Shown here: positions 20,810 to 63,715 of the stretch, piece by piece
Layout of the letters: each line of letters opens with the position of its first letter
How positions within the stretch are numbered: the first letter of the stretch is position 1
Assembly: GCA_035544015.1 (NCBI GenBank)
Contig: DATKIP010000076.1
Location: 299-64,298, forward strand
Reading direction: 5' to 3'
Origin: Candidatus Saccharimonadia bacterium
GTDB lineage: Bacteria > Patescibacteriota > Saccharimonadia > UBA4664
DNA length: 64,000 bases
Position numbers and translations under genes: made by a program
Notes under the pieces: generated by a model
Told to the model about the DNA's origin: nothing
Database searches by the model: none
Seen by the model: only the letters and a program-made list of their open reading frames with translations

Positions 20810-22333
20810 ATGTTCTACACTGTTTTCTCTATGTTCGCGGCGTTTCTCATTGGAGGCGGCGCGGTCGTCGGTTACACCCAATATTCCACCAAACGCAGAG
20901 GCAAGTCGGCTGTTGATCAGGCCGGCAAAATTGTCGAAGAGGCCCGTGTCGCGGCCAAGGAGCTCACCCTCGAGGCCAAAACCGAAGCCTTGCGCGTAGC
21001 CGAAGCCGCCAAACGCGACGAAAAAGAGCGTCGCCAGCAGATCACCCAAACCGAGCAGCAGCTCCTGCAGCGTCAATCCAACCTCGATCAAAAGCTCGAG
21101 GACCTCGACCGCCGCAGCGACAAGCTCCGCAAACACGAAGTTGACCTCGATAACCTCAAAGAGGAGCTGCGTGAAATCCGCGGAAAACAGCAGACAAACC
21201 TCGAGAAAATCGCCGGCCTGAGCAAAGATGAGGCCAAAGACAAACTCATCAAGATGACCGAGCGCGACATCAAGGGCGATCTCGTGAAGCTCGTTCAAAA
21301 ACTCCAAAACGAAGCCAAAGAAGAGGCCGAAGACAACGCCAAGATGATCATTGTCTCCGCCATGGAGCGCATGGCTTCTGACCAAACCACCGAGCGCACC
21401 ATCACCACCGTGCCACTGCCGTCCGACGAACTCAAAGGCCGCGTGATCGGCAAAGAGGGCCGCAACATCCAAGCCCTCGAGCGCGCCACCGGTGTCGACG
21501 TCATTATCGACGAGACTCCCGGCGCCATCGTGCTCTCCAGTTTCGACCCCATGCGCCGCCAGATTGCCCGCGTCGCGCTCGAAAAGCTGCTGGCCGACGG
21601 CCGCATCCACCCCGCGCGCATCGAGGAGGTGGTAGAGAAAGCCAAGTCCGAAATCGACCGCACGGTCAAAGAGGCGGGGGAGAAGGCGCTCAAAGAAACC
21701 GGCGTCGTCGGCGTGCCCACGGAAATGGTCAAACTGCTCGGCCAGCTCAAGTACCGCACCAGCTTCTCGCAAAACGTCCTCAAGCACTCCGTCGAAATGG
21801 CCAACCTGGCCGGCATGATCGCCAGTGACATCGGCGCCGACGTCCGCATTGCCAAAACCGCCACCCTGCTCCACGACATCGGCAAAGCCGTCACGCACGA
21901 AATCGAAGGCGGTCACCACCACATCGGCGCCGAGCTGGCCCAAAAATACGGCATGGAAGACGCCATCGTGCACGCCATCGAAGCGCACCACGACGATGTC
22001 GAGGCCACCACCCCCGAAGCCCTCGTGGTACGCGTGTGCGACGCCCTCTCCGCCGGCCGCCCCGGCGCCCGTGGCGACACCCTCGAAAACTACGCCAAAC
22101 GCATGACCGAGCTCGAAAACCTCGCCAATGCCTTCCCCGGCGTCACCAAGTGCTACGCCATCTCCGCCGGCCGCGAGATTCGCATCATCGTCCAGCCCGA
22201 GCGGGTCGATGACCTCCAGGCCATCCAAATGGCCCGCGACATCGCCACCAAAGTCGAAGCCACGCTCAAATACCCCGGCGTCATCAAGGTCAATGTGATC
22301 CGCGAAACCCGCGCCGTCGAGTTTGCCAAATAA
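20810..22333 (+). CDS. rny: ribonuclease Y
   Basis: N-terminal TM (MFYTVFSMFAAFLIGGG), a long coiled coil, a KH domain (GKEGRNIQALERATGVDVIIDETPGAIVLSSFDP) and an HD domain (LLHDIGKA...HH). Confidence 0.92.
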   Translation: MFYTVFSMFAAFLIGGGAVVGYTQYSTKRRGKSAVDQAGKIVEEARVAAKELTLEAKTEALRVAEAAKRDEKERRQQITQTEQQLLQRQSNLDQKLEDLDRRSDKLRKHEVDLDNLKEELREIRGKQQTNLEKIAGLSKDEAKDKLIKMTERDIKGDLVKLVQKLQNEAKEEAEDNAKMIIVSAMERMASDQTTERTITTVPLPSDELKGRVIGKEGRNIQALERATGVDVIIDETPGAIVLSSFDPMRRQIARVALEKLLADGRIHPARIEEVVEKAKSEIDRTVKEAGEKALKETGVVGVPTEMVKLLGQLKYRTSFSQNVLKHSVEMANLAGMIASDIGADVRIAKTATLLHDIGKAVTHEIEGGHHHIGAELAQKYGMEDAIVHAIEAHHDDVEATTPEALVVRVCDALSAGRPGARGDTLENYAKRMTELENLANAFPGVTKCYAISAGREIRIIVQPERVDDLQAIQMARDIATKVEATLKYPGVIKVNVIRETRAVEFAK

Positions 22334-28071: not shown

Positions 28072-28180
28072 GCAACAACCATCCGCCCCGCGAGCCGGCC
28101 CATCAGGGCCGGCTCCCCAACTCTGGATTTATCCCCCAAAATAAGGTAAAGTACCAAGGTCAAAAACCAAATACCGTCAT

Positions 28181-28258
28181 GGCGGGCGTAGCTCAGTTGG
28201 TTAGAGCGACTGGTTGTGGTCCAGTAGGTCGTGGGTTCAAGTCCCATCGCTCGCCCCA
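28181..28258 (+). tRNA. tRNA-His (anticodon GTG) with genomically encoded G-1
   Basis: An extra 5' G pairs with discriminator C73. Anticodon arm ACTGG-TTGTGGT-CCAGT, T loop TTCAAGT, CCA encoded. Confidence 0.85.
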
Positions 28259-28345
28259 TTTGCGCTTATGCTTATAACGGCTCTACAGAGTCGTTATTTT
28301 GTTATTACTGAACAAAACCAAAAAGTTGTTTCGAACATTTGGCAC

Positions 28346-28996
28346 TTAAAGCTCTGCCAAAGTATTTAAGCTCAGCTCTTCAAGCGAATCAACCACCAGG
28401 TCAGCTTCCGAGAACAATTTCCGGTCAATGTGTCGGTTCGGCACCGCAACCACTTTCATGCCCGCTCGTTTCGCCGCCGCTACCCCAGTCGGAGCATCTT
28501 CCAAAACTACGCACTCATCAGGCTTAACGCCAATTTCTTCTGCTGCTCGTAAGAAAATGTCTGGCTCTGGTTTGCCACGCTTCACCTGATCCCCGGAAAT
28601 AATTGCATCGAAATGATGACCCGCTTGAAGCTGCTCGATAACGATAATTATATGGTGACGCGCCGAGGATGAGGCAATTGCCTTCTTAATGCCTTGCTCC
28701 GATAAGTGGTCGAGCAAGGTCATAAGTCCTGGCATCGGCTGCATCCCCTTTGCTAATAGCTCCTCATAGACCTGTTGCTTTTTGTCGTACAAAACATCAA
28801 CGCTCTCGGAGAGCTGATGCACTTGTTTAAGACGTTCCCAATTATCCCTTGCCCCAACCCCCACTTCTTGCACGAGGCCACCATGAAGAACGGGAGTAAC
28901 CCCGTACTCCTGTAGCACCGCTTCAAACGACTTCGATTGAAGATGCTCGCTATCAATCATCAGGCCGTCCATGTCGAAAATAACTGCTTTTATCAT
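28346..28996 (-). CDS. HAD-IA family hydrolase (beta-phosphoglucomutase-like)
   Basis: MIKAVIFDMDGLMIDSE (motif I DxDG), later S/T and K motifs, and a GD motif near the C-terminus. The start was reassigned to the internal Met. The track ORF extends to 29137. Confidence 0.8.
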   Translation of the reverse strand: MIKAVIFDMDGLMIDSEHLQSKSFEAVLQEYGVTPVLHGGLVQEVGVGARDNWERLKQVHQLSESVDVLYDKKQQVYEELLAKGMQPMPGLMTLLDHLSEQGIKKAIASSSARHHIIIVIEQLQAGHHFDAIISGDQVKRGKPEPDIFLRAAEEIGVKPDECVVLEDAPTGVAAAKRAGMKVVAVPNRHIDRKLFSEADLVVDSLEELSLNTLAEL

Positions 28997-29044
28997 GCGC
29001 TCAATAATATCACCTCGAAACCACTTCTGAGCTATAATCCGATC

Positions 29045-29563
29045 ATGCCAACTGATCGAATCACCATTGTGAACGAAGCCGATAGCGTCATCGGCTCCGA
29101 AGACAGGAGCATTGCGCGCGCCCAGGGACTTCGGCATCGTATTGTGCGGGTCTTTTTGGTGAATTCAGAAGGTAAAGTGTTGCTCCATCGACGGTCAGAA
29201 AAGCTCAAGGATAATCCTGGAAAATGGGATCAGTCAGTCGGTGGTCATGTGGATGAAGGCGAAGACTACATCACGGCTGCCCGTCGAGAGACGCAGGAAG
29301 AGCTGGGAATTGCAGTAGAAAAATTTGAAGAAATCGGGAAATTCTATATCGAGCGCGAAGCTCCGGGCGGCTTCGTCAGAAGGTTTCAGGCCGTATTCAT
29401 CGCCAGAGGAGACGGCCCGGTCAAACTTGACGAGAGTGAAATTGCCGAGATTCGCTGGTTTGATATAGCGGAAGCAGCGGAGTTCTACTCGCAAAAACCC
29501 GACGCATTCACAAAGAATTTTGCTAGAGCCTTTGAGCTGCTCCAGAAGGCATTAGCGACCTGA
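29045..29563 (+). CDS. NUDIX hydrolase (second paralogue)
   Basis: Nudix box GGHVDEGEDYITAARRETQEELGI. The start was chosen at MPTDRITIV. The track ORF starts at a TTG at 28937. Confidence 0.8.
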   Translation: MPTDRITIVNEADSVIGSEDRSIARAQGLRHRIVRVFLVNSEGKVLLHRRSEKLKDNPGKWDQSVGGHVDEGEDYITAARRETQEELGIAVEKFEEIGKFYIEREAPGGFVRRFQAVFIARGDGPVKLDESEIAEIRWFDIAEAAEFYSQKPDAFTKNFARAFELLQKALAT

Positions 29564-29625
29564 ACTTAATATCATTAACCATCGCGCAAACCGCACCACA
29601 ACATTCTGTTCGAAACTTGAACTTA
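29563..29625. repeat. direct repeat copy 1 (about 60 bp) flanking the AlbA_2-ATPase cassette
   Basis: tgaacttaatatcattaaccatcgcgcaaaccgcaccacaacattctgttcgaaacttgaac. It recurs at 31361..31425 with roughly 85-90% identity. Confidence 0.8.
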
Positions 29626-29726
29626 CAAAGGGCCACTCGAAATAAAAATCAGCGCAGGCAAAACCCCAGTCGGCGTGACATTTGAGATTGCTTCGGCCAG
29701 TATTTAGCCACCAATGGAGGTCAGCT

Positions 29727-29800
29727 ATATCGTTAAATATCGTAAAAAAGGCGCTCTATTTTTGAGGTTAAGCGCAGCGAATCGTTAAATATCGTAAAAT
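29727..29800. repeat. two copies of a roughly 19-bp motif (atcgttaaatatcgtaaaa) about 54 bp apart, each with an internal ATCGT-N4-ATCGT sub-repeat
   Basis: Read directly in the 3' flank of the AlbA_2 gene. Confidence 0.7.
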
Positions 29801-29852
29801 GCTTAAGCTGGCATCTACAGATAAGAAATCACTATTGGTAAACAAAAACAAC

Positions 29853-31286
29853 CTAATGATTGCCGATTTCGTATGTGGTGCTAGGGCCTTGGCCGCGCTG
29901 AGCCACCAGGTCTAATTCTATAAGCTTATTGATGTCGGCGATGACCGTAGGGCGGGTAATCGAGCCAATGGTCTGAACTATGTCTCGCGACGTTGCAGAA
30001 GACTTGTTAAGAATAATCTGCCAAATAGCGAGCTGGCGCTCTGTTAACTCTGAATATGTCGGCCCAAGTAGTGTCACGGTGAACATATTGGCGACATTTC
30101 TAAAGATAGGCCGAGAAAGATTTACTTGGCGCATATAGTCATAAACAAGGTCAATACCGCGGCCATACTCCTCAAGATAACCCAAATCTTTCATCAGGGC
30201 AGCAATAACTGAATTTCTGCTAAACTGCGCCTCTCGAATGTTATCGACGGTAATTCGCGGAGGAAGAGTGCCGGGGTTGGAAATCTCGATTCGATCGGGG
30301 AAAACTCGTACCTGAATATAAGATTCGATGATGCTGTAGTCTCGATGAATAACAGCATTTGCGGCGATTTCACGAATAGCCTTTTCGGGGTAAGCGTATG
30401 TTTCCACCCGACGAGTACCCTCGATAGTGGCGCTTCTGGCAATATTTCTCAGTACAAACGAGTTCATGGTATCAATTTGTTCTTCAAGAGTCCCATGAAG
30501 GTCTTGCTTGTCGATTATTTCGCTTGCCGTAGTCGGGCCTGCGTATCGGACACAGCGAATAACGTACCGGTCTAGCTCAGGATTCCGCTGAGGCGGGTTG
30601 CTACTAAAGATCATTGCCCCAGCCAAGGTAGCCACCCTTTCGGACTCACAGATGGCAAGAATCTTCATGTTTAGGAGGGTGTCATCATGAATGGCATTCT
30701 CTCGCCCGGTTCTCTCGCCGAGTTCATGAATGAGGTGTTGAATCTTATCTTGGCTGAGATCGGCTTCATGTATCGAGCGAATTTGGGTCAAATCATATTT
30801 GAAACCCGATGAATTACGAATGAACTGCCTCAGCTCATCATCGGTAATGGGCCGATTACTATTCCCGACACGGATATAAGCACCACGATCCATGCCGAGC
30901 TTTCGGTCATAGCAGGGCTTCCTCTCGTCCGGTACTGCATCAATAACCACGGCAAGTAGAGTCTTCCCATCGATTGTAATCGCTCGATATTCTGGCCTCT
31001 CAGCGTTGATGATCCGATCGCTAAAGAAGTTTGTCGTTCGTTCGGTCATTTCATGGACATTTGTAACGCCAACCGGCGCAAACGTGCGCGTAACAGGGTC
31101 TTCGACTACACCGTATACAATTAAGCCTCCATCAGCGGCCTTGTTACTAAATGCGGTTATGCTACGCCAGATAATATCCGGTAAGCCACCCCGTGTATCT
31201 TTGAACTCGACTAAATTGGTCTCTCCGTTGGATTGGATAGCTTCTTGCACCAGTGATGTGAGTTCGGCTTCGGATATGCCTCTCAT
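29853..31286 (-). CDS. AlbA_2 (divergent AAA-4 / Schlafen-like) domain ATP-binding protein with a C-terminal wHTH domain (putative DNA-binding regulator or defence-type ATPase)
   Basis: N-terminal LVEFKDTRGGLPDIIWRSITAFSNKAADGGLIVYGV is typical of the AlbA_2 domain. The middle region is HATPase_c_4-like. The C-terminus (QLAIWQIILNKSSATSRDIVQTIGSITRPTVIADINKLIELDLV) is HTH-like. Confidence 0.65.
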   Translation of the reverse strand: MRGISEAELTSLVQEAIQSNGETNLVEFKDTRGGLPDIIWRSITAFSNKAADGGLIVYGVVEDPVTRTFAPVGVTNVHEMTERTTNFFSDRIINAERPEYRAITIDGKTLLAVVIDAVPDERKPCYDRKLGMDRGAYIRVGNSNRPITDDELRQFIRNSSGFKYDLTQIRSIHEADLSQDKIQHLIHELGERTGRENAIHDDTLLNMKILAICESERVATLAGAMIFSSNPPQRNPELDRYVIRCVRYAGPTTASEIIDKQDLHGTLEEQIDTMNSFVLRNIARSATIEGTRRVETYAYPEKAIREIAANAVIHRDYSIIESYIQVRVFPDRIEISNPGTLPPRITVDNIREAQFSRNSVIAALMKDLGYLEEYGRGIDLVYDYMRQVNLSRPIFRNVANMFTVTLLGPTYSELTERQLAIWQIILNKSSATSRDIVQTIGSITRPTVIADINKLIELDLVAQRGQGPSTTYEIGNH

Positions 31287-31360
31287 ATTTCCTCGGAATA
31301 AGTCCTTATAATATAACAGCTCATCTGGGATAGCGCCTGAATTTAAGCAGCCAGCACCGA

Positions 31361-31425
31361 TCTGAACTTAATATCATTCACCATCGCGCAAACTGCGGCG
31401 TAGCACTCTGTTCGAAACTTGAACC
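31361..31425. repeat. direct repeat copy 2, followed by a 12-bp copy of the tRNA-His 3' end (gctcgccccatt)
   Basis: ctgaacttaatatcattcaccatcgcgcaaactgcggcgtagcactctgttcgaaacttgaacc, then ctagctcgccccatt. The tRNA-His 3' end at 28247..28260 is catcgctcgccccatt. Confidence 0.75.
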
Positions 31426-31449
31426 CTAGCTCGCCCCATTGCAATTGTC

Positions 31450-31479
31450 TTGACGACCAAATTTATCATCTGATATTAT
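31450..31479 (+). promoter_or_regulatory. strong sigma70-like promoter (TTGACG-18-TATTAT)
   Basis: Near-consensus hexamers. No protein-coding ORF follows within 170 nt. Confidence 0.5.
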
Positions 31480-31485
31480 CAAACT

Positions 31486-31660
31486 CGGAAGACATGGGAG
31501 GATATAAAGAAGCTCCTAGATGTAGCCTGTCGAGTTAAGAATGTTTTGTTCAATGTCCGCCGTCCGAGTTCGATGCTTTGTTAGTTAGTAAGCTGCATCA
31601 CCGCGACGTCTTCCATCCAGTCCGTAAAATAAGAGGCATTTAAATGCCTCTTATTTTTTT
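31486..31660 (+). ncRNA. candidate small RNA (about 170 nt) bounded by the promoter at 31450 and an intrinsic terminator
   Basis: A promoter and terminator bracket a region that contains only ORFs of 14 aa or less and no RBS. Confidence 0.3.
31627..31660 (+). terminator. rho-independent terminator (aagaggcatttaaatgcctctt + T8)
   Basis: Perfect 9-bp stem with a 4-nt loop, followed by TATTTTTTT. Confidence 0.85.
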
Positions 31661-31908
31661 GTTTCCCCATCTTCGACCCTAAATTAGCATTAGAACAAGA
31701 GGGGCAAGATGCGGCGGCTCCATTGCATGCCGGGCTAAGCCCCTGGGATATGCCTTGTTTGATAAAGGAAAATGCTAAACAGAATTGGAACAAGCTAGAG
31801 CAGCTACTTGCCAACCAGAACGGCAGACATAAATTTTGGCAGGCTATTTTTTTGCGAGCCAGGCCAGCACATGCTTTAATTAAGCATAAGCAGTAATGAA
31901 GGGCTTCA

Positions 31909-32487
31909 ATGCCGAAACAGTCTCGCCGCAGAATCAATTCTCGACTTATTTTCTCTATCCTTGGCGGATTCGCGGTTTTAGCGCTCCTCGCACAGGCCAT
32001 GTTGATAATGCAGCTCTACGCTCGTACCGACCAGCTAAAGACCCAAGAACTAAAAGCCACCCTAATCGATGCCGTTCGCAGCCTAAACACTGAGCCTGCG
32101 ATTGACCCCCAAACCGGACGCCGATTTATCCCTTCCGCTCGCGTGGTTTTTCCTGCCAGGATCGACAGCCACCTTTATTACCGCGACCCCGGCAACGAGC
32201 CCACCCTATGGCTAACCGACGCGAATAATCAATCGCAGGCCGTCACCAAGGTCCGGACCGCTGAATCGCTCTCAGACATGTTTAAAGAAGTCGATGCGTT
32301 GCAGCTGTGTAGCCGGCAGGTAGTAGTGAGCTTTAATACTCCCAATCCCCAAGATAATACCGACAAGCTAACTTTAAAAAGCACGAAAAAGCTAAAAGAC
32401 GGCCGCATAGCCTACGTATATCAGAATGAATGCCCATACGGCGCCGAGCCTCTCCTGAGGTCCGTCGATCAAATGGAAAGCTATTAA
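31909..32487 (+). CDS. hypothetical N-terminally anchored extracellular protein
   Basis: TM/signal segment LIFSILGGFAVLALLAQAMLI and a C-terminal Cys pair. Confidence 0.5.
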   Translation: MPKQSRRRINSRLIFSILGGFAVLALLAQAMLIMQLYARTDQLKTQELKATLIDAVRSLNTEPAIDPQTGRRFIPSARVVFPARIDSHLYYRDPGNEPTLWLTDANNQSQAVTKVRTAESLSDMFKEVDALQLCSRQVVVSFNTPNPQDNTDKLTLKSTKKLKDGRIAYVYQNECPYGAEPLLRSVDQMESY

Positions 32488-32744: not shown

Positions 32745-33260
32745 TTAGATATCTAAATATTCCACCGGCGCTTCATCGCGGCTTTGCGCCTGGTGCATGA
32801 GCTTGAGCAGCGCACTCGGTAGCTTACCCTCGGCCTCTTCCAATGATGCAAATACAACGAGCTGAGTGTCGGGTGTGTATTCAAAGTAATCCGCCGTCCG
32901 CCAAAAGTCGCGCTGGCGAAAAACATCAAGATTGGGCTGCTTGGTGATCTCCACCGCCCACTGGTTCTTGGCTGTTTTAAACACCCGAGCCGTAAACCAG
33001 TCATTATGATCGCCCGCCCCCTGCCACTTAATGAGCAAACGGCCGTTAAATCGCTTCTCCTGCTGCAGGCCCTTGGTGCCCGTTTGCACCACGATCTCTT
33101 TAAGGCCCTTGGTCTGGGCTTCGCTCCGAGTAATAAACTCCTTGAGCGCCCGCAACAGCACCGCCGAAAGGTTGTCCCCGGCTAATTGCTGAGCCTGCTC
33201 ATAAACAGCCTGGTCTTCATTTGAGACGTAAATAGTCTTGTTTGGCATCATGCTAATCAC
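32745..33260 (-). CDS. ribbon-helix-helix (CopG/Arc-like) N-terminal domain protein with an uncharacterised C-terminal domain
   Basis: KTIYVSNEDQAVYEQAQQLAGDNLSAVLLRALKEFI fits a beta-strand, helix, G-x-S turn, helix RHH pattern. It lies 17 nt upstream of the glycine-zipper ORF on the same strand. Confidence 0.45.
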   Translation of the reverse strand: MISMMPNKTIYVSNEDQAVYEQAQQLAGDNLSAVLLRALKEFITRSEAQTKGLKEIVVQTGTKGLQQEKRFNGRLLIKWQGAGDHNDWFTARVFKTAKNQWAVEITKQPNLDVFRQRDFWRTADYFEYTPDTQLVVFASLEEAEGKLPSALLKLMHQAQSRDEAPVEYLDI

Positions 33261-33525: not shown

Positions 33526-34548
33526 TCAAGATCGGGGCACCAGAGAGCCCAGCGGTCGACCGCCCCATTTGCCATCCATGATGTCAAACATCTGACGGCC
33601 CATGACATCTTCAGCCTCCACGGCAGGATTGGTCGAACCGTAATTGTCGATATCGCCTACCCCGTCGTTCATAAACGCGTAGATCAGCGCCGGCTTGCCC
33701 GCAGCGTCGAACATAATGCCTACCTCGTGCCGCGAATCCTCAAACGCACCGTATTTGGTAGCTACCTGGGCACGCTCCGTTGAGCTCATATTGCGGCGCA
33801 CGCCATCATTGTAGCCGTTGACCCAGCGCATAATATTAAGCACAAAAGTTGACGATTTTTCCGACACCAGCGAGTGGTTCGCCAATCCTGCCAGCAAGGT
33901 ATTCATCTCCCGCGGCGTGGTCTGACCCAAGAAGAACCGACTCGAACCCGCCACCGGGTCCACGTGGGTAGCCGTAAAGCCCTTGGCCGCCAATGTTTGA
34001 TTTATCTCGGTGCCCGACGCCACCTGGCTGAGCATTCGAACCGCCGTATTATCCGACACCAGCAGCATTGCGGTCATGAGGTTGGCGACCGTCAAATTGT
34101 CGCCATACACTGTTTGCAGAAAATAAATCCCGCTACCAGACGCAATAATATCAGGCGTGAGTGTCAGCTTTTGGTCCAGTTTGACCTCGCCCTTGTCCAC
34201 CTTGTCCATCACCGTCATCGCCACTGCCAGCTTATTTACGCTGTACGCCCACATTGGGGTGTCGGCTTGATCGTCCACCGCCGGTTTGAGCGCACCGGTT
34301 GAATCCGCCACGGTCACGTAAGAATGCCAATTGCCGGGCACTCCCGCGGTATCGGCATGGTAAATCGCCGCCACTTGTTGCGAAGCTATCAGCCACGGGA
34401 TATCAGGTGCCGCGAACTGAGCCGCCCCCGGGGTAGGGGATGGCGTGGTCTCGGCAAGTACCGCTCCACCCGGCATCAAAACAGCCATACCCATCACGAG
34501 GCTAGTCAAGCCGAGTTTGGCGCGGTAGACAAATAATTCTTTAAGCAT
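33526..34548 (-). CDS. secreted serine hydrolase, class A beta-lactamase-like
   Basis: Signal peptide, then an SxxK motif (AYSVNKLAV) and an SDN motif (LLVSDNTAV). The start was reassigned to MLKELFVYRAKLG. Confidence 0.6.
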   Translation of the reverse strand: MLKELFVYRAKLGLTSLVMGMAVLMPGGAVLAETTPSPTPGAAQFAAPDIPWLIASQQVAAIYHADTAGVPGNWHSYVTVADSTGALKPAVDDQADTPMWAYSVNKLAVAMTVMDKVDKGEVKLDQKLTLTPDIIASGSGIYFLQTVYGDNLTVANLMTAMLLVSDNTAVRMLSQVASGTEINQTLAAKGFTATHVDPVAGSSRFFLGQTTPREMNTLLAGLANHSLVSEKSSTFVLNIMRWVNGYNDGVRRNMSSTERAQVATKYGAFEDSRHEVGIMFDAAGKPALIYAFMNDGVGDIDNYGSTNPAVEAEDVMGRQMFDIMDGKWGGRPLGSLVPRS

Positions 34549-41325: not shown

Positions 41326-41466
41326 AACGAACCAGATTCCTTGATTTTTATTATTACGAAATAAGTTAATTATCTTAGATAGATTACGGGATCAACTGTG
41401 GAGCGTCAATGTTAAAAAGCAATCCCAGACAGGATTGCTTTTTAACGTATCCGAACTCCAGCCGGA

Positions 41467-41778
41467 TTACATCGGCAGCGTTTCGTATACCCGCACCGCA
41501 CCGCCGGGCACATCCAGCACCGGGCAGCCTTGAGCCAGCGCCACGGCGTCGTCCATGCTGGCAGCCTTTACGATGGTGTAGCCGGTGGCCGGATGGTTTT
41601 CGATCGTGCTCACACCGCTCTTCTCTACGGCCTGACCACCATCCGCAAACGGATTGCCGGCGTCTACGAGGCTCGCACCGAGCTCACCAAACCAAGCTTT
41701 CCAAACCTTCGCCACCTCTTTCATGGGCATGTCGCCCGAAATCGGCTCATTGTAATACACGAATACATAATTCTTCAT
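41467..41778 (-). CDS. small alpha+beta protein (YciI/Dabb-like?), hypothetical
   Basis: 103 aa, MKNYVFVYYNEP start. Weak resemblance only. Confidence 0.35.
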   Translation of the reverse strand: MKNYVFVYYNEPISGDMPMKEVAKVWKAWFGELGASLVDAGNPFADGGQAVEKSGVSTIENHPATGYTIVKAASMDDAVALAQGCPVLDVPGGAVRVYETLPM

Positions 41779-41817
41779 CTATGTACTCCTCTCTGCCCCA
41801 CGCGGGGGCGATAAAAA

Positions 41818-42156
41818 TTATGGTTGCTGTAGGCCGGCAATGTAGTTTTCCAACGTTTCCTCGTCGTTGCCCCACTCCGTCCGGTATTGCATCATCCAAT
41901 CCTGGGTGGTGCGCAACGTTTGCTTATTGAGCGCGATGAAATTGGTGCGGCCGGCTTTTTTGCGAATGATCAGTCCGGCGGCCTCAAGCGCACGAATGTG
42001 CTTATGAATGGCCGGCAGTGACAGATCATGCTCGCGCGCTAGTCCCGCGATGGTCGCCGGACGAAACGACAGATCGTGCAGCATGTCGCGGCGCTTTTGG
42101 TGCGCCAGCGCGCCAAAAATCTGGTCAAGCTGGATGGGGATATTTGAGTCGTACAT
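41818..42156 (-). CDS. ArsR/SmtB-family HTH transcriptional regulator
   Basis: ALAHQKRRDMLHDL...ATIAGLAREHDLSLPAIHKHIRALEAAGLI is a winged-HTH of the ArsR type. Confidence 0.8.
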   Translation of the reverse strand: MYDSNIPIQLDQIFGALAHQKRRDMLHDLSFRPATIAGLAREHDLSLPAIHKHIRALEAAGLIIRKKAGRTNFIALNKQTLRTTQDWMMQYRTEWGNDEETLENYIAGLQQP

Positions 42157-60031: not shown

Positions 60032-60799
60032 TTGTTCTGGTATTCTATATGCATGTTAATCACTTTTGTTGATTCGTTAGCCCGGCCGGCCGGTTCGCTA
60101 TGGCAGAGACTTCAGTCTAGCAGTCACGATGACACATTCAATGTTGCCTCTCCCTTGTCGAGTACGCCGTTTCCGATTTATCAATGGATTTTAGAAAACA
60201 GCGGGGATTTTACAAACTGGGATAAAACTAATTTGGTGCTTATGGATGAGCAGGTCGACGGCGATCAGCCACCATACCGTTATATTCCGTTGGAAGATCC
60301 GGCCAGCTATGAAGCGTTTGCTCGTCGCTCGCTGCTTGACCAACTATCCGAAAAAACTGGTGTCAGCATTGATGTCATCAAGCCTAGACTGGAAACCATC
60401 GATTCATTCAATACGAGAATCGACCTACTCGTACTGGCGCTGGGAATCGACGGCAACTATGCCAACGTAATGCCTGGTACGCCAGAGTCAGGCGGCTGGC
60501 ACATCGCGCACCTTACGCCGGCGTTCCGGCAAACACACACCAAAACAGGAAGCAAGTCCTACGAGAACGCCAAGTTTCGCGAATTTGGAATGTCACTCGG
60601 GCCGCAGCAAGTTCTCGAGGCGAAGAATGTCGTAGTTATCATCAGCGGCCCACAAAAACACGATCTAGCTACGCAACTGCTAGCTTATAGGGAGTTCGAC
60701 CCGACGTTCCCATTATCAATTATCTATCATCCCGAAGTGATTGATCGAGTGCAGATCTTTATTGCGAATGATGTTGGAATCGAAGGATCAAAATCCTGA
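60032..60799 (+). CDS. 6-phosphogluconolactonase / glucosamine-6-phosphate deaminase (NagB/Pgl) superfamily protein, divergent
   Basis: DLLVLALGIDGNYANVMPG parallels the DLxLLGxGxDGHTASLFP motif but has His->Asn and Thr->Tyr. A VVIISG motif lies downstream. Confidence 0.45.
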   Translation: MFWYSICMLITFVDSLARPAGSLWQRLQSSSHDDTFNVASPLSSTPFPIYQWILENSGDFTNWDKTNLVLMDEQVDGDQPPYRYIPLEDPASYEAFARRSLLDQLSEKTGVSIDVIKPRLETIDSFNTRIDLLVLALGIDGNYANVMPGTPESGGWHIAHLTPAFRQTHTKTGSKSYENAKFREFGMSLGPQQVLEAKNVVVIISGPQKHDLATQLLAYREFDPTFPLSIIYHPEVIDRVQIFIANDVGIEGSKS

Positions 60800-61635: not shown

Positions 61636-61711
61636 GCGCTCGTAGCTCAGTGGATAGAGCACTAGGCTTCGAACCTAGGTGTCGGGGGTTCGAGTCCCTC
61701 CGAGCGCACCA
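61636..61711 (+). tRNA. tRNA-Arg (anticodon TCG)
   Basis: Acceptor GCGCTCG/CGAGCGC, anticodon arm CTAGG-CTTCGAA-CCTAG, CCA encoded. Confidence 0.85.
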
Positions 61712-61722
61712 GTTAACATTTT

Positions 61723-61799
61723 GGGCCATTAGCTCAGTTGGTTAGAGCAGCTGCCTCTTAAGCAGCGTGTCCTGGGTTCGAGTCCCAGATGGCCCTCCA
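61723..61799 (+). tRNA. tRNA-Lys (anticodon CTT)
   Basis: Acceptor GGGCCAT/ATGGCCC, anticodon arm GCTGC-CTCTTAA-GCAGC, T loop TTCGAGT, CCA encoded. Confidence 0.85.
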
Positions 61800-62552: not shown

Positions 62553-63614
62553 CTATTGATCGCGCTGCCGCACAAACTCCAGGATGTCGTCTAGTGCGCG
62601 CTGCCCGTCGGCGGTATCGAGGTTGAACTGATATTCATGCGCAAGACTCGGCTGGTGATCGGCTGGATAAAACAGTGAGGTGACGGGTACGCCTAGTGCG
62701 GTCAGGCGTCCTGCCAGCGGTTTGGATTGATGATCAGTCAGCGGATCACCATTACCGCCGCTTATAAAAGTAGGCGGGAAGCTACCCGTGACGTGGTAAT
62801 AAGGAGAAAGCTGCCGGATGAGCGGTCCAGACTTGTCGGGTGATCCACTGAAGGCCCACACTACCCTATCATCCGCCCAGCTAATGATCCTAGGCAGCGA
62901 GGGGGCGGCCTCGGTGAGACCCTCCAATTGATAAATGCCACAAAATAGGATCACGCCCGCTAGCTGTTGCGGCGCAAGGGCGGGCCGTACTCCTACCTCT
63001 TGAGCATAGTCGGGGTTGGTAATGAGGGCGGCCATTTGACTGGATAGTTGAGCTCCGGCTGAGTCGCCGGCCAAGAAAATCTTGTTTGGATCAACGCGAA
63101 AACGCTTGGCGTTGGCCGCTACGTAAGCGTGAGCTGCATTTAACTCAAGAGTCTGAGTTGGCGATGATTTTTCCGGTGCCAAGCTATAATTGAGCGATAC
63201 CACCACCAGGTTGTGAGCGGCAATTGATTTAAAGTAAGGGGCGTCATTGGTTTTGTCACCCGACACCCATGCTCCACCATGCGTCCATATCACTACGGGC
63301 AAGAGTTGACTGCCTTGCTCGGCTGTTTGCGGGATATAGACATCAAGCAGCGCATTTTTGTCGCCGGCCTCGTATGGCTGATCCGATAAAACTGTGATAG
63401 GCGTAGTCGGAGTATATTTTTCGAGTCGGGTCAAAACCGCCTTATCGCTATGGTTAAAGATCGCACGCACCAGCAATGCACCCGGCCATGGATTTACTTG
63501 AAAGGCAATGTAGGCTAACAAAAAAACCAACAAAATACTAAAAGCTATGGCTAGTAGTCGTTTGCTCAACCGGCCCAAAAGGTCTCTAGATGATTTAGAT
63601 TTAACTTTTTTCAT
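62553..63614 (-). CDS. alpha/beta hydrolase-fold esterase/lipase (HSL/fold-3 type), secreted or membrane-anchored
   Basis: N-terminal TM/signal, oxyanion HGGAW motif, nucleophile elbow GDSAG, C-terminal His. The likely start is MKKVKSKSS. Confidence 0.8.
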   Translation of the reverse strand: MKKVKSKSSRDLLGRLSKRLLAIAFSILLVFLLAYIAFQVNPWPGALLVRAIFNHSDKAVLTRLEKYTPTTPITVLSDQPYEAGDKNALLDVYIPQTAEQGSQLLPVVIWTHGGAWVSGDKTNDAPYFKSIAAHNLVVVSLNYSLAPEKSSPTQTLELNAAHAYVAANAKRFRVDPNKIFLAGDSAGAQLSSQMAALITNPDYAQEVGVRPALAPQQLAGVILFCGIYQLEGLTEAAPSLPRIISWADDRVVWAFSGSPDKSGPLIRQLSPYYHVTGSFPPTFISGGNGDPLTDHQSKPLAGRLTALGVPVTSLFYPADHQPSLAHEYQFNLDTADGQRALDDILEFVRQRDQ

Positions 63615-63715
63615 CGCGTATGAATATACGTAATTGTACAAGAATGCGCATCGTATTGGCATGCCGAATCTCAGGGGCAACAGCCGGCACGATTCTTTAT
63701 CTCATTTGCTATACT

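Follow-up and report, generated by a model that had tools for sequence, protein, structure and literature searches.

A probable recombinase-less islet at the 3' end of a tRNA-His gene in a Saccharimonadia genome, with a diverged direct repeat around an AlbA_2/HATPase_c_4 gene

The 64,000-nucleotide (nt) stretch of Candidatus Saccharimonadia bacterium DNA analyzed here (the window; contig DATKIP010000076.1 of assembly GCA_035544015.1, positions 299 to 64,298) contains a short segment at 28259-31440, referred to below as the islet, that runs from an intact tRNA-His gene to a sequence resembling the 3' end of that same gene. Between these two points lie genes for a HAD-type phosphatase, a NUDIX hydrolase, and an AlbA_2 (Schlafen-like) ATPase, the last of which is bracketed by two direct repeats. 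Sequence identical to the window occurs within a 320-kb metagenome contig of ENA and in a Logan contig, and the NCBI annotation assigns the 477-residue AlbA_2 protein to a Candidatus Saccharimonadia metagenome-assembled genome. The nearest genomes in GTDB are metagenome-assembled genomes of Saccharimonadales, with 55-62% identity at the neighboring DDAH-like protein. The tRNA-His gene closes a tRNA-rich stretch in which ARAGORN finds tRNA-Arg, tRNA-Gly, and tRNA-Pro on the minus strand and then tRNA-His on the plus strand at 28182-28258. The features of the locus are as follows.

28182..28258, plus strand: intact tRNA-His (GTG) (ARAGORN; Rfam tRNA 67.4 bits), the proximal islet end (attL side)
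28244..28260, plus strand: tRNA-His 3' end and 2 further nt, recurring at 31424-31440 (12 nt exact, 28249-28260; 15/17 overall)
28274..28297, plus strand: terminator hairpin after tRNA-His, also serving the convergent HAD gene
28346..28996, minus strand: HAD-IA phosphatase gene (beta-phosphoglucomutase-like), islet cargo (Pfam HAD_2 E 1e-37; NCBIfam)
29045..29563, plus strand: NUDIX hydrolase gene (YfcD/IDI-like), islet cargo (Pfam NUDIX E 3e-24; NCBIfam)
29544..29622, plus strand: direct repeat copy 1 (NUDIX tail 29544-29563, block A 29564-29583, spacer 29584-29607, block B 29608-29622)
29623..29728, no strand assigned: spacer between copy 1 and the AlbA_2 3' element, with no open reading frame (ORF), repeat, Rfam match, or likeness to any fetched locus
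29729..29842, minus strand: conserved 3' element of the AlbA_2 gene (two full motifs, CTGTAGA box, degenerate first motif)
29853..31286, minus strand: gene for a 477-residue protein with AlbA_2 (Schlafen-like), GHKL-type HATPase_c_4, and C-terminal winged-helix domains
31287..31345, minus strand: AlbA_2 upstream region (-10-like TATATTAT, ribosome-binding site GAGGAA), conserved among homologs just at the -10
31346..31424, plus strand: direct repeat copy 2 (NUDIX-tail-like 31346-31365, block A 31366-31385, spacer 31386-31409, block B 31410-31424)
31425..31446, plus strand: displaced tRNA-His 3' fragment CCTAGCTCGCCCCA (31425-31438) and then TTGCAATT, the distal islet end (attR side)

The two direct repeats are identical at 65 of 79 positions (82%) and are spaced 1802 nt start to start; their 32-nt core is present in just these two copies in the window, against 0.00 expected in shuffled sequences. 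An earlier reading of the window, made from its letters alone (the original prediction), had described two direct repeats of about 60 bp. The repeats are real, but each extends over 79 nt, beginning about 20 nt earlier than was thought, within the 3' end of the NUDIX gene, and ending at 29622 and 31424. We aligned both window copies with the single copy in L172, a 1.6-kb contig from the Joint Genome Institute (JGI) whose HAD protein is 91% identical to the window HAD, and with L090, a contig of a more distant Saccharimonadales lineage in which one neighboring protein is 58% identical to its window counterpart. Block A (ACTTAATATCATTnACCATC, consensus TTAATATCrTTnACCATC) is conserved at 17-19 of 20 positions. 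Block B (GTTCGAAACTTGAAC), an imperfect palindrome (GTTCGA-AAC-TTGAAC), is conserved at 15/15 in all four sequences. The spacer that separates the blocks is exactly 24 nt long in three copies, yet only 7-17 of its 24 positions are identical. Block B directly abuts C[C/A]TAGCTCGCCCCA in copy 2, L172, and L090, giving the junction pattern GTTCGAAACTTGAACC[CA]TAGCTCGCCCCA; in copy 1 it runs into the unrelated sequence TTACAAAGG and not into a tRNA fragment.

This layout is unlike the neutral decay of a recent duplication. Conserved blocks at a fixed spacing, around a spacer that is free to vary, at an islet end beside a tRNA core, suggest the protein-binding arms of an attachment site, and the repeat would fit such an arm. 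The two window copies are closer to each other than to the L172 copy (54 and 50 of 79 positions), so that either the duplication post-dates the split from L172 or copy 2 came from a close relative, and the duplication is not recent because the spacer differs at 7 of 24 positions. The original prediction had called them internal direct repeats, but they are not simple repeats of the attL/attR type: copy 1 lacks the tRNA core, and the two copies are duplicates of the islet right end that take in some 20 nt from the end of the NUDIX gene. A convincing fold, whether as RNA or as an attC-like hairpin, is seen for neither copy, and copy 1 does no better than shuffled sequences on either strand (z +0.62 and +1.37).

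The sequence behind copy 2 is linked to the tRNA gene by the 12-mer GCTCGCCCCATT, which occurs at 28249-28260 and at 31429-31440. The original prediction had identified this match correctly but as the last 12 nt of tRNA-His, whereas it consists of the last 10 nt and 2 flanking nt. Its estimate that such a match would arise by chance roughly 1 time in 100 does not stand, with 9 of 722 control segments scoring equally against tRNA-His and its flank. Two other 12-mers in the window match tRNA 3' ends without meaning: one at 33561-33572 is an exact 12-mer of the tRNA-His 3' end (CGCCCCATTTGC) inside a beta-lactamase-like ORF, and one at 21390-21401 is an exact 12-mer of the tRNA-Arg 3' end (CCGAGCGCACCA). 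Matches to tRNA ends of this length recur by chance in the GC-rich window, and the window alone cannot establish a displaced tRNA fragment.

What makes the displaced fragment credible is its conservation in related contigs. L172 is 84% identical to the window at the DNA level across 890 nt, tRNA-His included, and begins with tRNA-His and a terminator; next come HAD, a NUDIX tail that contains an in-frame stop, a single copy of the repeat, GTTCGAAACTTGAACCATAGCTCGCCCCA, and lastly a hairpin terminator followed by a pilin-like gene. The HAD ortholog in this contig thus lies between tRNA-His and the fragment. The fragment matches the tRNA-His 3' end at 14 of 15 positions and is situated 0.9 kb from L172's own tRNA-His, and the terminator behind it has homologs after the genuine tRNA-His genes in the window, in L172 itself, and in L005. 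The geometry already proposed from the window, of an intact tRNA-His with its 3' fragment displaced, is therefore backed by a contig in which the same fragment is followed by a tRNA-His-type terminator. L172 has neither the AlbA_2 gene nor an intact NUDIX gene. Of NUDIX it retains, at 516-660, just the final ~90 nt, placed after HAD and before the repeat (encoding FTQNFASVFNLFLKSIPTEI and the stop, with an upstream in-frame stop), which indicates that NUDIX was ancestral to both lineages and was deleted in L172.

In the more distant L090, the 29-mer GTTCGAAACTTGAACCCTAGCTCGCCCCA, which spans the junction of block B and fragment, is identical to window 31410-31438 at 29/29 positions (28/29 in L172). 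There it closes a 1.9-kb block made up of a 345-residue ORF and a PhdYeFM/ParE pair, with a terminator next. This block is absent from L091, a strain 99% identical to L090 from the next gene (HD-domain) onward, which begins (1-102) with CCA-TTGCAAT and the terminator. The window terminator at 28274-28297 is homologous to those after tRNA-His or its fragments in L172, L005, L090, and L091, and in the last three of these the sequence at that place is similar to TTGCAATT, which flanks the window fragment. L005, the closest GTDB genome, has tRNA-Pro and tRNA-His adjacent as in the window, and its tRNA-His is followed by the terminator and unrelated genes, with no HAD, NUDIX, or AlbA_2 and with downstream synteny lost.

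The islet also deviates from its host in composition (GC 0.477 versus 0.60). G+C content at third codon positions (GC3) is 0.52 for HAD, 0.53 for NUDIX, and 0.49 for AlbA_2, compared with 0.75 in the DDAH gene just left of the tRNA cluster, and the placing of HAD and NUDIX inside the islet by the original prediction agrees with the difference between these two genes and the neighboring native gene.

Because relatives keep the fragment (L172 and L090), L005 lacks the cargo, and the composition deviates, we think it probable that 28259-31440 represents an old islet, devoid of a recombinase, that was integrated at the 3' end of tRNA-His, and that the AlbA_2 segment is a later insertion. The original event at tRNA-His, presumably integrase-mediated, would have brought in HAD and NUDIX and rebuilt the tRNA end, supplying its own terminator and displacing the original tRNA 3' end (CC[A/C]TAGCTCGCCCCA) to the far side. 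Later, in the window lineage only, a 1.8-kb segment consisting of the AlbA_2 gene, its 3' repeat element, and a second right end with ~20 nt of NUDIX tail would have entered at the right end of the islet. Most economically, the right end already in place would have undergone one Campbell-type crossover with its homolog on a circle or a donor molecule. The catalyst would be host recombination or a recombinase encoded elsewhere, and the resulting order would be copy 1 of the right end, AlbA_2, copy 2 of the right end, and the fragment. A repeat, 1.7 kb, a second repeat, and the fragment in the window, where L172 has one repeat and the fragment, are what a single crossover classically leaves behind. 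We favor insertion in the window lineage because AlbA_2 homologs are scattered singly in unrelated contexts and the gene has the lowest GC3 of the three. The original prediction had looked to related genomes for a site without the segment, and L172, from which the AlbA_2 segment is absent and which has a single repeat copy, is empty-site-like.

Several points weigh against this reading. The two repeat copies differ at 14 of 79 positions, so the event was not recent, and with no tRNA core behind copy 1 there is no classical tandem att array. Recombination between the repeats could just as well have removed the AlbA_2 segment from L172, and this contig, 84% identical in DNA and 1.6 kb long, is not a strain-level empty site. 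The exact tRNA match amounts to just 12 nt, which is not significant within the window alone, and HAD and NUDIX are housekeeping-like cargo. A scan of the islet, of 10 kb to each side of it, and of about 30 ORFs of the window found no recombinase, consistent with the earlier statement that no integrase is present. Finally, the binding of the 3' repeats by the AlbA_2 protein, considered below, is something that we infer. The sole mobile-element enzyme found in the window is encoded by an ORF at 21-845 with a DDE_Tnp_1 transposase domain (E 5e-10).

Some of these points would also suit a region that was never mobile, a native, fast-evolving stretch in which the NUDIX 3' end and regulatory sequence were duplicated locally, AlbA_2 arrived by illegitimate recombination, and the 12-mer arose by chance. 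The chance level of the 12-mer in the window with its two comparable meaningless matches, the lack of a recombinase, and the generally poor synteny of the clade are all compatible with such a history. We nevertheless regard it as highly improbable, given that block B and the fragment are conserved at 28-29 of 29 positions in two other lineages, that the L172 and L090 fragments are followed by a terminator homologous to those after true tRNA-His genes, that the three genes are compositional outliers, and that the tRNA-His of L005 stands without this cargo.

A second alternative keeps mobility but changes the order of events. In a tandem accretion, a HAD-NUDIX element and an AlbA_2/truncated-NUDIX element would have been integrated in turn by a trans-acting tyrosine integrase, and the core and left arm after 29622 would have been deleted later. 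L090 seems to be such an array, with three tRNA-His-end-like sequences between small cargo blocks; moreover, the two window copies share their conserved blocks but differ in the spacer, as would be expected of allelic versions of a single element end, and copy 2 has a NUDIX-tail-like 20 nt of its own. After copy 1, however, the sequence (TTACAAAGGGCC...) bears no remnant of the core, nor of the terminator arm that follows all other instances of ...CCCCA, and in L172 HAD-NUDIX abuts the fragment, which would place the entry of AlbA_2 at the distal end and not at the tRNA as is classical. As no integrase is seen either, we consider tandem accretion unlikely. The tRNA-His-end-like sequences of L090 lie within 200-2215 (at 212-226, 264-270, and 2198-2211) and set apart a partial ORF, the 345-residue ORF, and the PhdYeFM/ParE pair, and the comparison of L090 with L091 suggests several mini-elements lined up in tandem at a site of this kind. 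The 345-residue ORF was considered as a recombinase and rejected, since it has no Pfam family and a coiled-coil-like sequence.

The reading as an integrated islet with a later AlbA_2 insertion was compared with known kinds of element. Islander catalogs genomic islands in tRNA and tmRNA genes and requires an integrase gene (PMC4383910). Like these islands (PMC4383910), the islet is bounded on one side by an intact tRNA gene and on the other by a displaced, directly oriented fragment of its 3' end; it supplies the gene with a new 3' end and a terminator, its cargo is variable, and its composition deviates. Tandem arrays at the same tRNA gene have a parallel in L090. Unlike them, it has no integrase, is 3.2 kb long here and 0.9 kb in L172, shares an exact identity block of 12 nt, and carries metabolic cargo (HAD and NUDIX). 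The islet is a degraded, recombinase-less form of this well-known kind of island. With non-autonomous or degraded islands moved by a recombinase elsewhere (e.g. IMEX, host XerC/D), it shares ends that are conserved across lineages where no recombinase is encoded, and block B, an imperfect palindrome adjoining the junction, resembles core-type recombinase sites; unlike in IMEX elements, the target is a tRNA gene and not dif. Integron gene cassettes offer a further parallel, in that a single gene with a site-like sequence of ~60-80 nt forms a unit between two copies with conserved ends and a variable center. The islet differs from them in having no attC-like hairpin, repeat ends that are not inverse complements, no integron integrase, attI, or cassette array, and only two repeat copies in 64 kb. 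An insertion sequence or a miniature inverted-repeat element was rejected, there being no inverted repeats at the segment ends, a duplication that is 79 nt long and diverged, and a DDE_Tnp_1 gene 29 kb away.

A more far-reaching proposal, which we put forward as speculation and think rather unlikely, is that Saccharimonadales carry miniature recombinase-less cassettes that are moved in trans by way of the right end (block A, 24 nt, and block B abutting the tRNA-His core) and that deliver accessory genes, singly or as toxin-antitoxin pairs, to the tRNA-His locus. In that case the AlbA_2 gene would be a self-contained module, and the winged helix of its product would bind the conserved iterons 3' of the gene, serving to recognize the module itself, to autoregulate it, or to maintain an excised circle.

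The gene between the repeats is the only one there, and the Pfam domain search confirmed two of the three domains that had been proposed for its product from the sequence and gave a weak match for the third. SLFN_AlbA_2 covers residues 22-147 (E 2e-13, 51.3 bits, cut-off 25.3) and HATPase_c_4 residues 322-406 (E 2e-23, 82.5 bits, cut-off 26), whereas the C-terminal winged helix gives a Penicillinase_R match below the cut-off (E 0.008) and, in homologs, weak TrmB matches. The GHKL motifs E306, N310 (N-box), D331, N337-P338-G339, and G375-R376-G377 are invariant in 22 sequences, and E22, E27, and K29 are invariant in the subfamily alignment. In an AlphaFold2 model with a mean predicted local distance difference test score of 81, Foldseek likens the ATPase domain to the catalytic and ATP-binding domains of histidine kinases and superposes residues ~415-475 on MecI, SmtB, MarR, AspA, and TubR with a root mean square deviation of 2-3 Å over about 65 residues; no Schlafen nuclease domains were among the Foldseek matches in the PDB. 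Only two solved homologs were matched, DIP2311 of Corynebacterium diphtheriae (3lmm) and the isolated N-terminal domain 2kyy, both uncharacterized. The DIP2311 match reaches E 4e-11 by sequence and E 4e-22 by Foldseek over the whole chain at about 19% identity. DIP2311 and the COG2865-type "RecG-related" proteins have the same domain order and conserved GHKL boxes. The 477-residue protein is most likely an ATP-binding, sequence-specific DNA-binding protein.

The family has 761 homologs across Patescibacteria at E<=1e-10, the nearest of them about 60% identical, with a patchy distribution and no conserved context. Each of the seven independent loci that we examined (55-60% protein identity) has, directly on the 3' side of the stop codon, an element of ~75 nt that reads TTTAACGATAG, about 11 nt, CCCCTGTTA, about 15 nt, and TTTAACrrTATTTAACGATAG. 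In the window it includes the full motif TTTTACGATATTTAACGAT twice, at 29781-29799 and 29729-29747, the CTGTAGA box at 29814-29820, and the degenerate first motif TTTACCAATAG at 29832-29842. The original prediction had noted 19-bp repeats at 29727-29800 as possible protein-binding sites, and these are exact 19-nt copies, found nowhere else in the 64 kb and conserved beside homologs in six other loci. In those loci the element lies at the following positions.

L083, 7449-7515
L084, 7459-7590
L085, 7494-7559
L174, 5447-5510
L175, 4838-4900
L176, 4380-4440 (also in L177-L179)

Its last unit is duplicated in the window and in L085 and triplicated as 55-nt tandem units in L084. An alignment of the elements has 23 invariant columns, as opposed to 4 in the upstream regions, with no RNA consensus structure by RNAalifold and no Rfam family. 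Binding sites are the best explanation for direct repeats of 10-11 nt that are helically spaced and travel with the gene irrespective of the downstream sequence, and the winged helix of the AlbA_2 protein probably recognizes the TTTAACGATAG repeats 3' of its own gene. The combination of a winged-helix fold with direct 10-11-nt repeats beside the gene recalls iteron and centromere binders such as AspA of pNOB8 and TubR, as well as repressors of the MecI/BlaI type; the likeness covers the small winged-helix domain alone, and there is no partner ATPase of the ParA or TubZ type. The conserved 3' DNA element is a feature of the Patescibacteria subfamily, the one in which it was looked for. One homolog, an identical protein of 481 residues (P0014) in L176, L177, and L179, is followed by sequence in which L176 diverges from the other two about 230 nt after the AlbA_2 stop codon. 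L177 and L179 reach a tRNA-Met about 290 nt after the stop and L176 does not, a strain-variable, tRNA-adjacent AlbA_2 site.

The context of the gene makes a defense role plausible, as far as sequence comparison can suggest one, and in its fullest form the AlbA_2 gene with its 3' repeats would be a single-gene anti-phage or anti-plasmid module, in which the GHKL ATPase controls an N-terminal Schlafen-like domain that detects or cuts nucleic acid and the repeats at the locus reflect turnover of a defense island at a tRNA hotspot. PADLOC-DB 2.0 returned domain-level partial matches to fusion models of prokaryotic Argonaute (pAgo) and Argonaute-associated (Aga) proteins (E 1e-12 to 2e-20), but no whole system and no partner genes. 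The neighbors of homologs suit a defense module, being GmrSD_C with yebC in one place, a block with reverse transcriptase with a helix-turn-helix domain, RadC, and a zeta-toxin-like protein in another, and SocA in a third, with further homologs inside polysaccharide clusters or adjoining Phd/ParE or MazE; so does the patchy, context-free distribution of the family across Patescibacteria. The protein has no NCBIfam name, however, its solved homologs 3lmm and 2kyy are uncharacterized, it has no relative in 2.9 million viral contigs of IMG/VR, and the conserved cis element fits a site-specific DNA-binding regulator better than a generic sensor. We hold the defense module to be a possible but doubtful account. 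A literature search found no functional study of proteins combining AlbA_2 and HATPase_c_4.

The genomes of Saccharibacteria and other Patescibacteria are tiny, and how these bacteria exchange genes is poorly understood; our literature search found no study of tRNA islands in Saccharibacteria. A tRNA-His hotspot with minimal islets, whose ends are conserved across lineages in the absence of a recombinase, points to trans-mobilized cassettes or to a recurrent integration site; if the mobility is just historical, the islet is an ordinary decayed island. Two features are above routine: the conservation of element ends across lineages with no encoded recombinase, and the 3' DNA element, an undescribed conserved element beside a widespread and uncharacterized ATPase family. 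The AlbA_2/HATPase_c_4/winged-helix family is functionally blank, and the 3' element gives it a testable candidate DNA target.

Several other candidates for related or additional sites were tried and rejected. A decayed second tRNA-His at copy 2 is not found by ARAGORN or Rfam, and the hairpin and fragment are 2 nt out of the T-arm/acceptor register; no Rfam family other than tRNA-His is present in 28100-32000. An occurrence of CTCGCCCCAT in L092 is due to chance and lies inside a coding region, and a 22-mer spanning block B and the core, used in a search for a phage attP, had no exact match in IMG/VR. Homologs (57-68% identity) of the 192-residue protein encoded on the right flank, followed for an empty site, lie in other contexts, away from any tRNA-His or NUDIX, and are uninformative. 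NUDIX relatives in JGI metagenomes (best 63-66% identical) have no second gene in common with the window and no repeat-like sequence, and L173, with a HAD 79% identical, differs in context on both sides.

The copy 2 spacer (TGCGGCGTAGCAC) resembles the tRNA-His 5' end (GGCGGGCGTAGCTC) at 12/14 positions with one gap, and by pairing with the downstream fragment (31392-31440 together) it can enclose the block B hairpin in an acceptor-like stem (-18.2 kcal/mol, z -2.7, 0/200 shuffles). This likeness is absent from copy 1, L172, and L090, and may be chance. Just right of the islet, at 31450-31665, a strong sigma-70-like promoter (TTGACG, 18 nt, TG-TATTAT; 10/12) precedes, by about 150 nt, a terminator formed by a perfect palindrome of 14 bp (31626-31657), inside which the Logan contig L002 ends (window 31655). 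With no ORF longer than 15 codons between them and no Rfam match, the interval is a candidate small RNA. The second gene right of the islet, at 32745-33260, encodes an EXLDI-family protein (TIGR04342, E 4e-17), and the right flank up to about 37 kb has an intermediate GC of 0.52-0.55. Other ORFs of low GC3 (0.44-0.53) in the window are at 41409-41930, 60032-60799, and 62553-63680. The last two, which encode a 6-phosphogluconolactonase-like protein and an alpha/beta hydrolase, flank a tRNA-Arg/tRNA-Lys pair at 61636-61799, and such low-GC3 ORFs beside tRNA genes may be other acquired segments.

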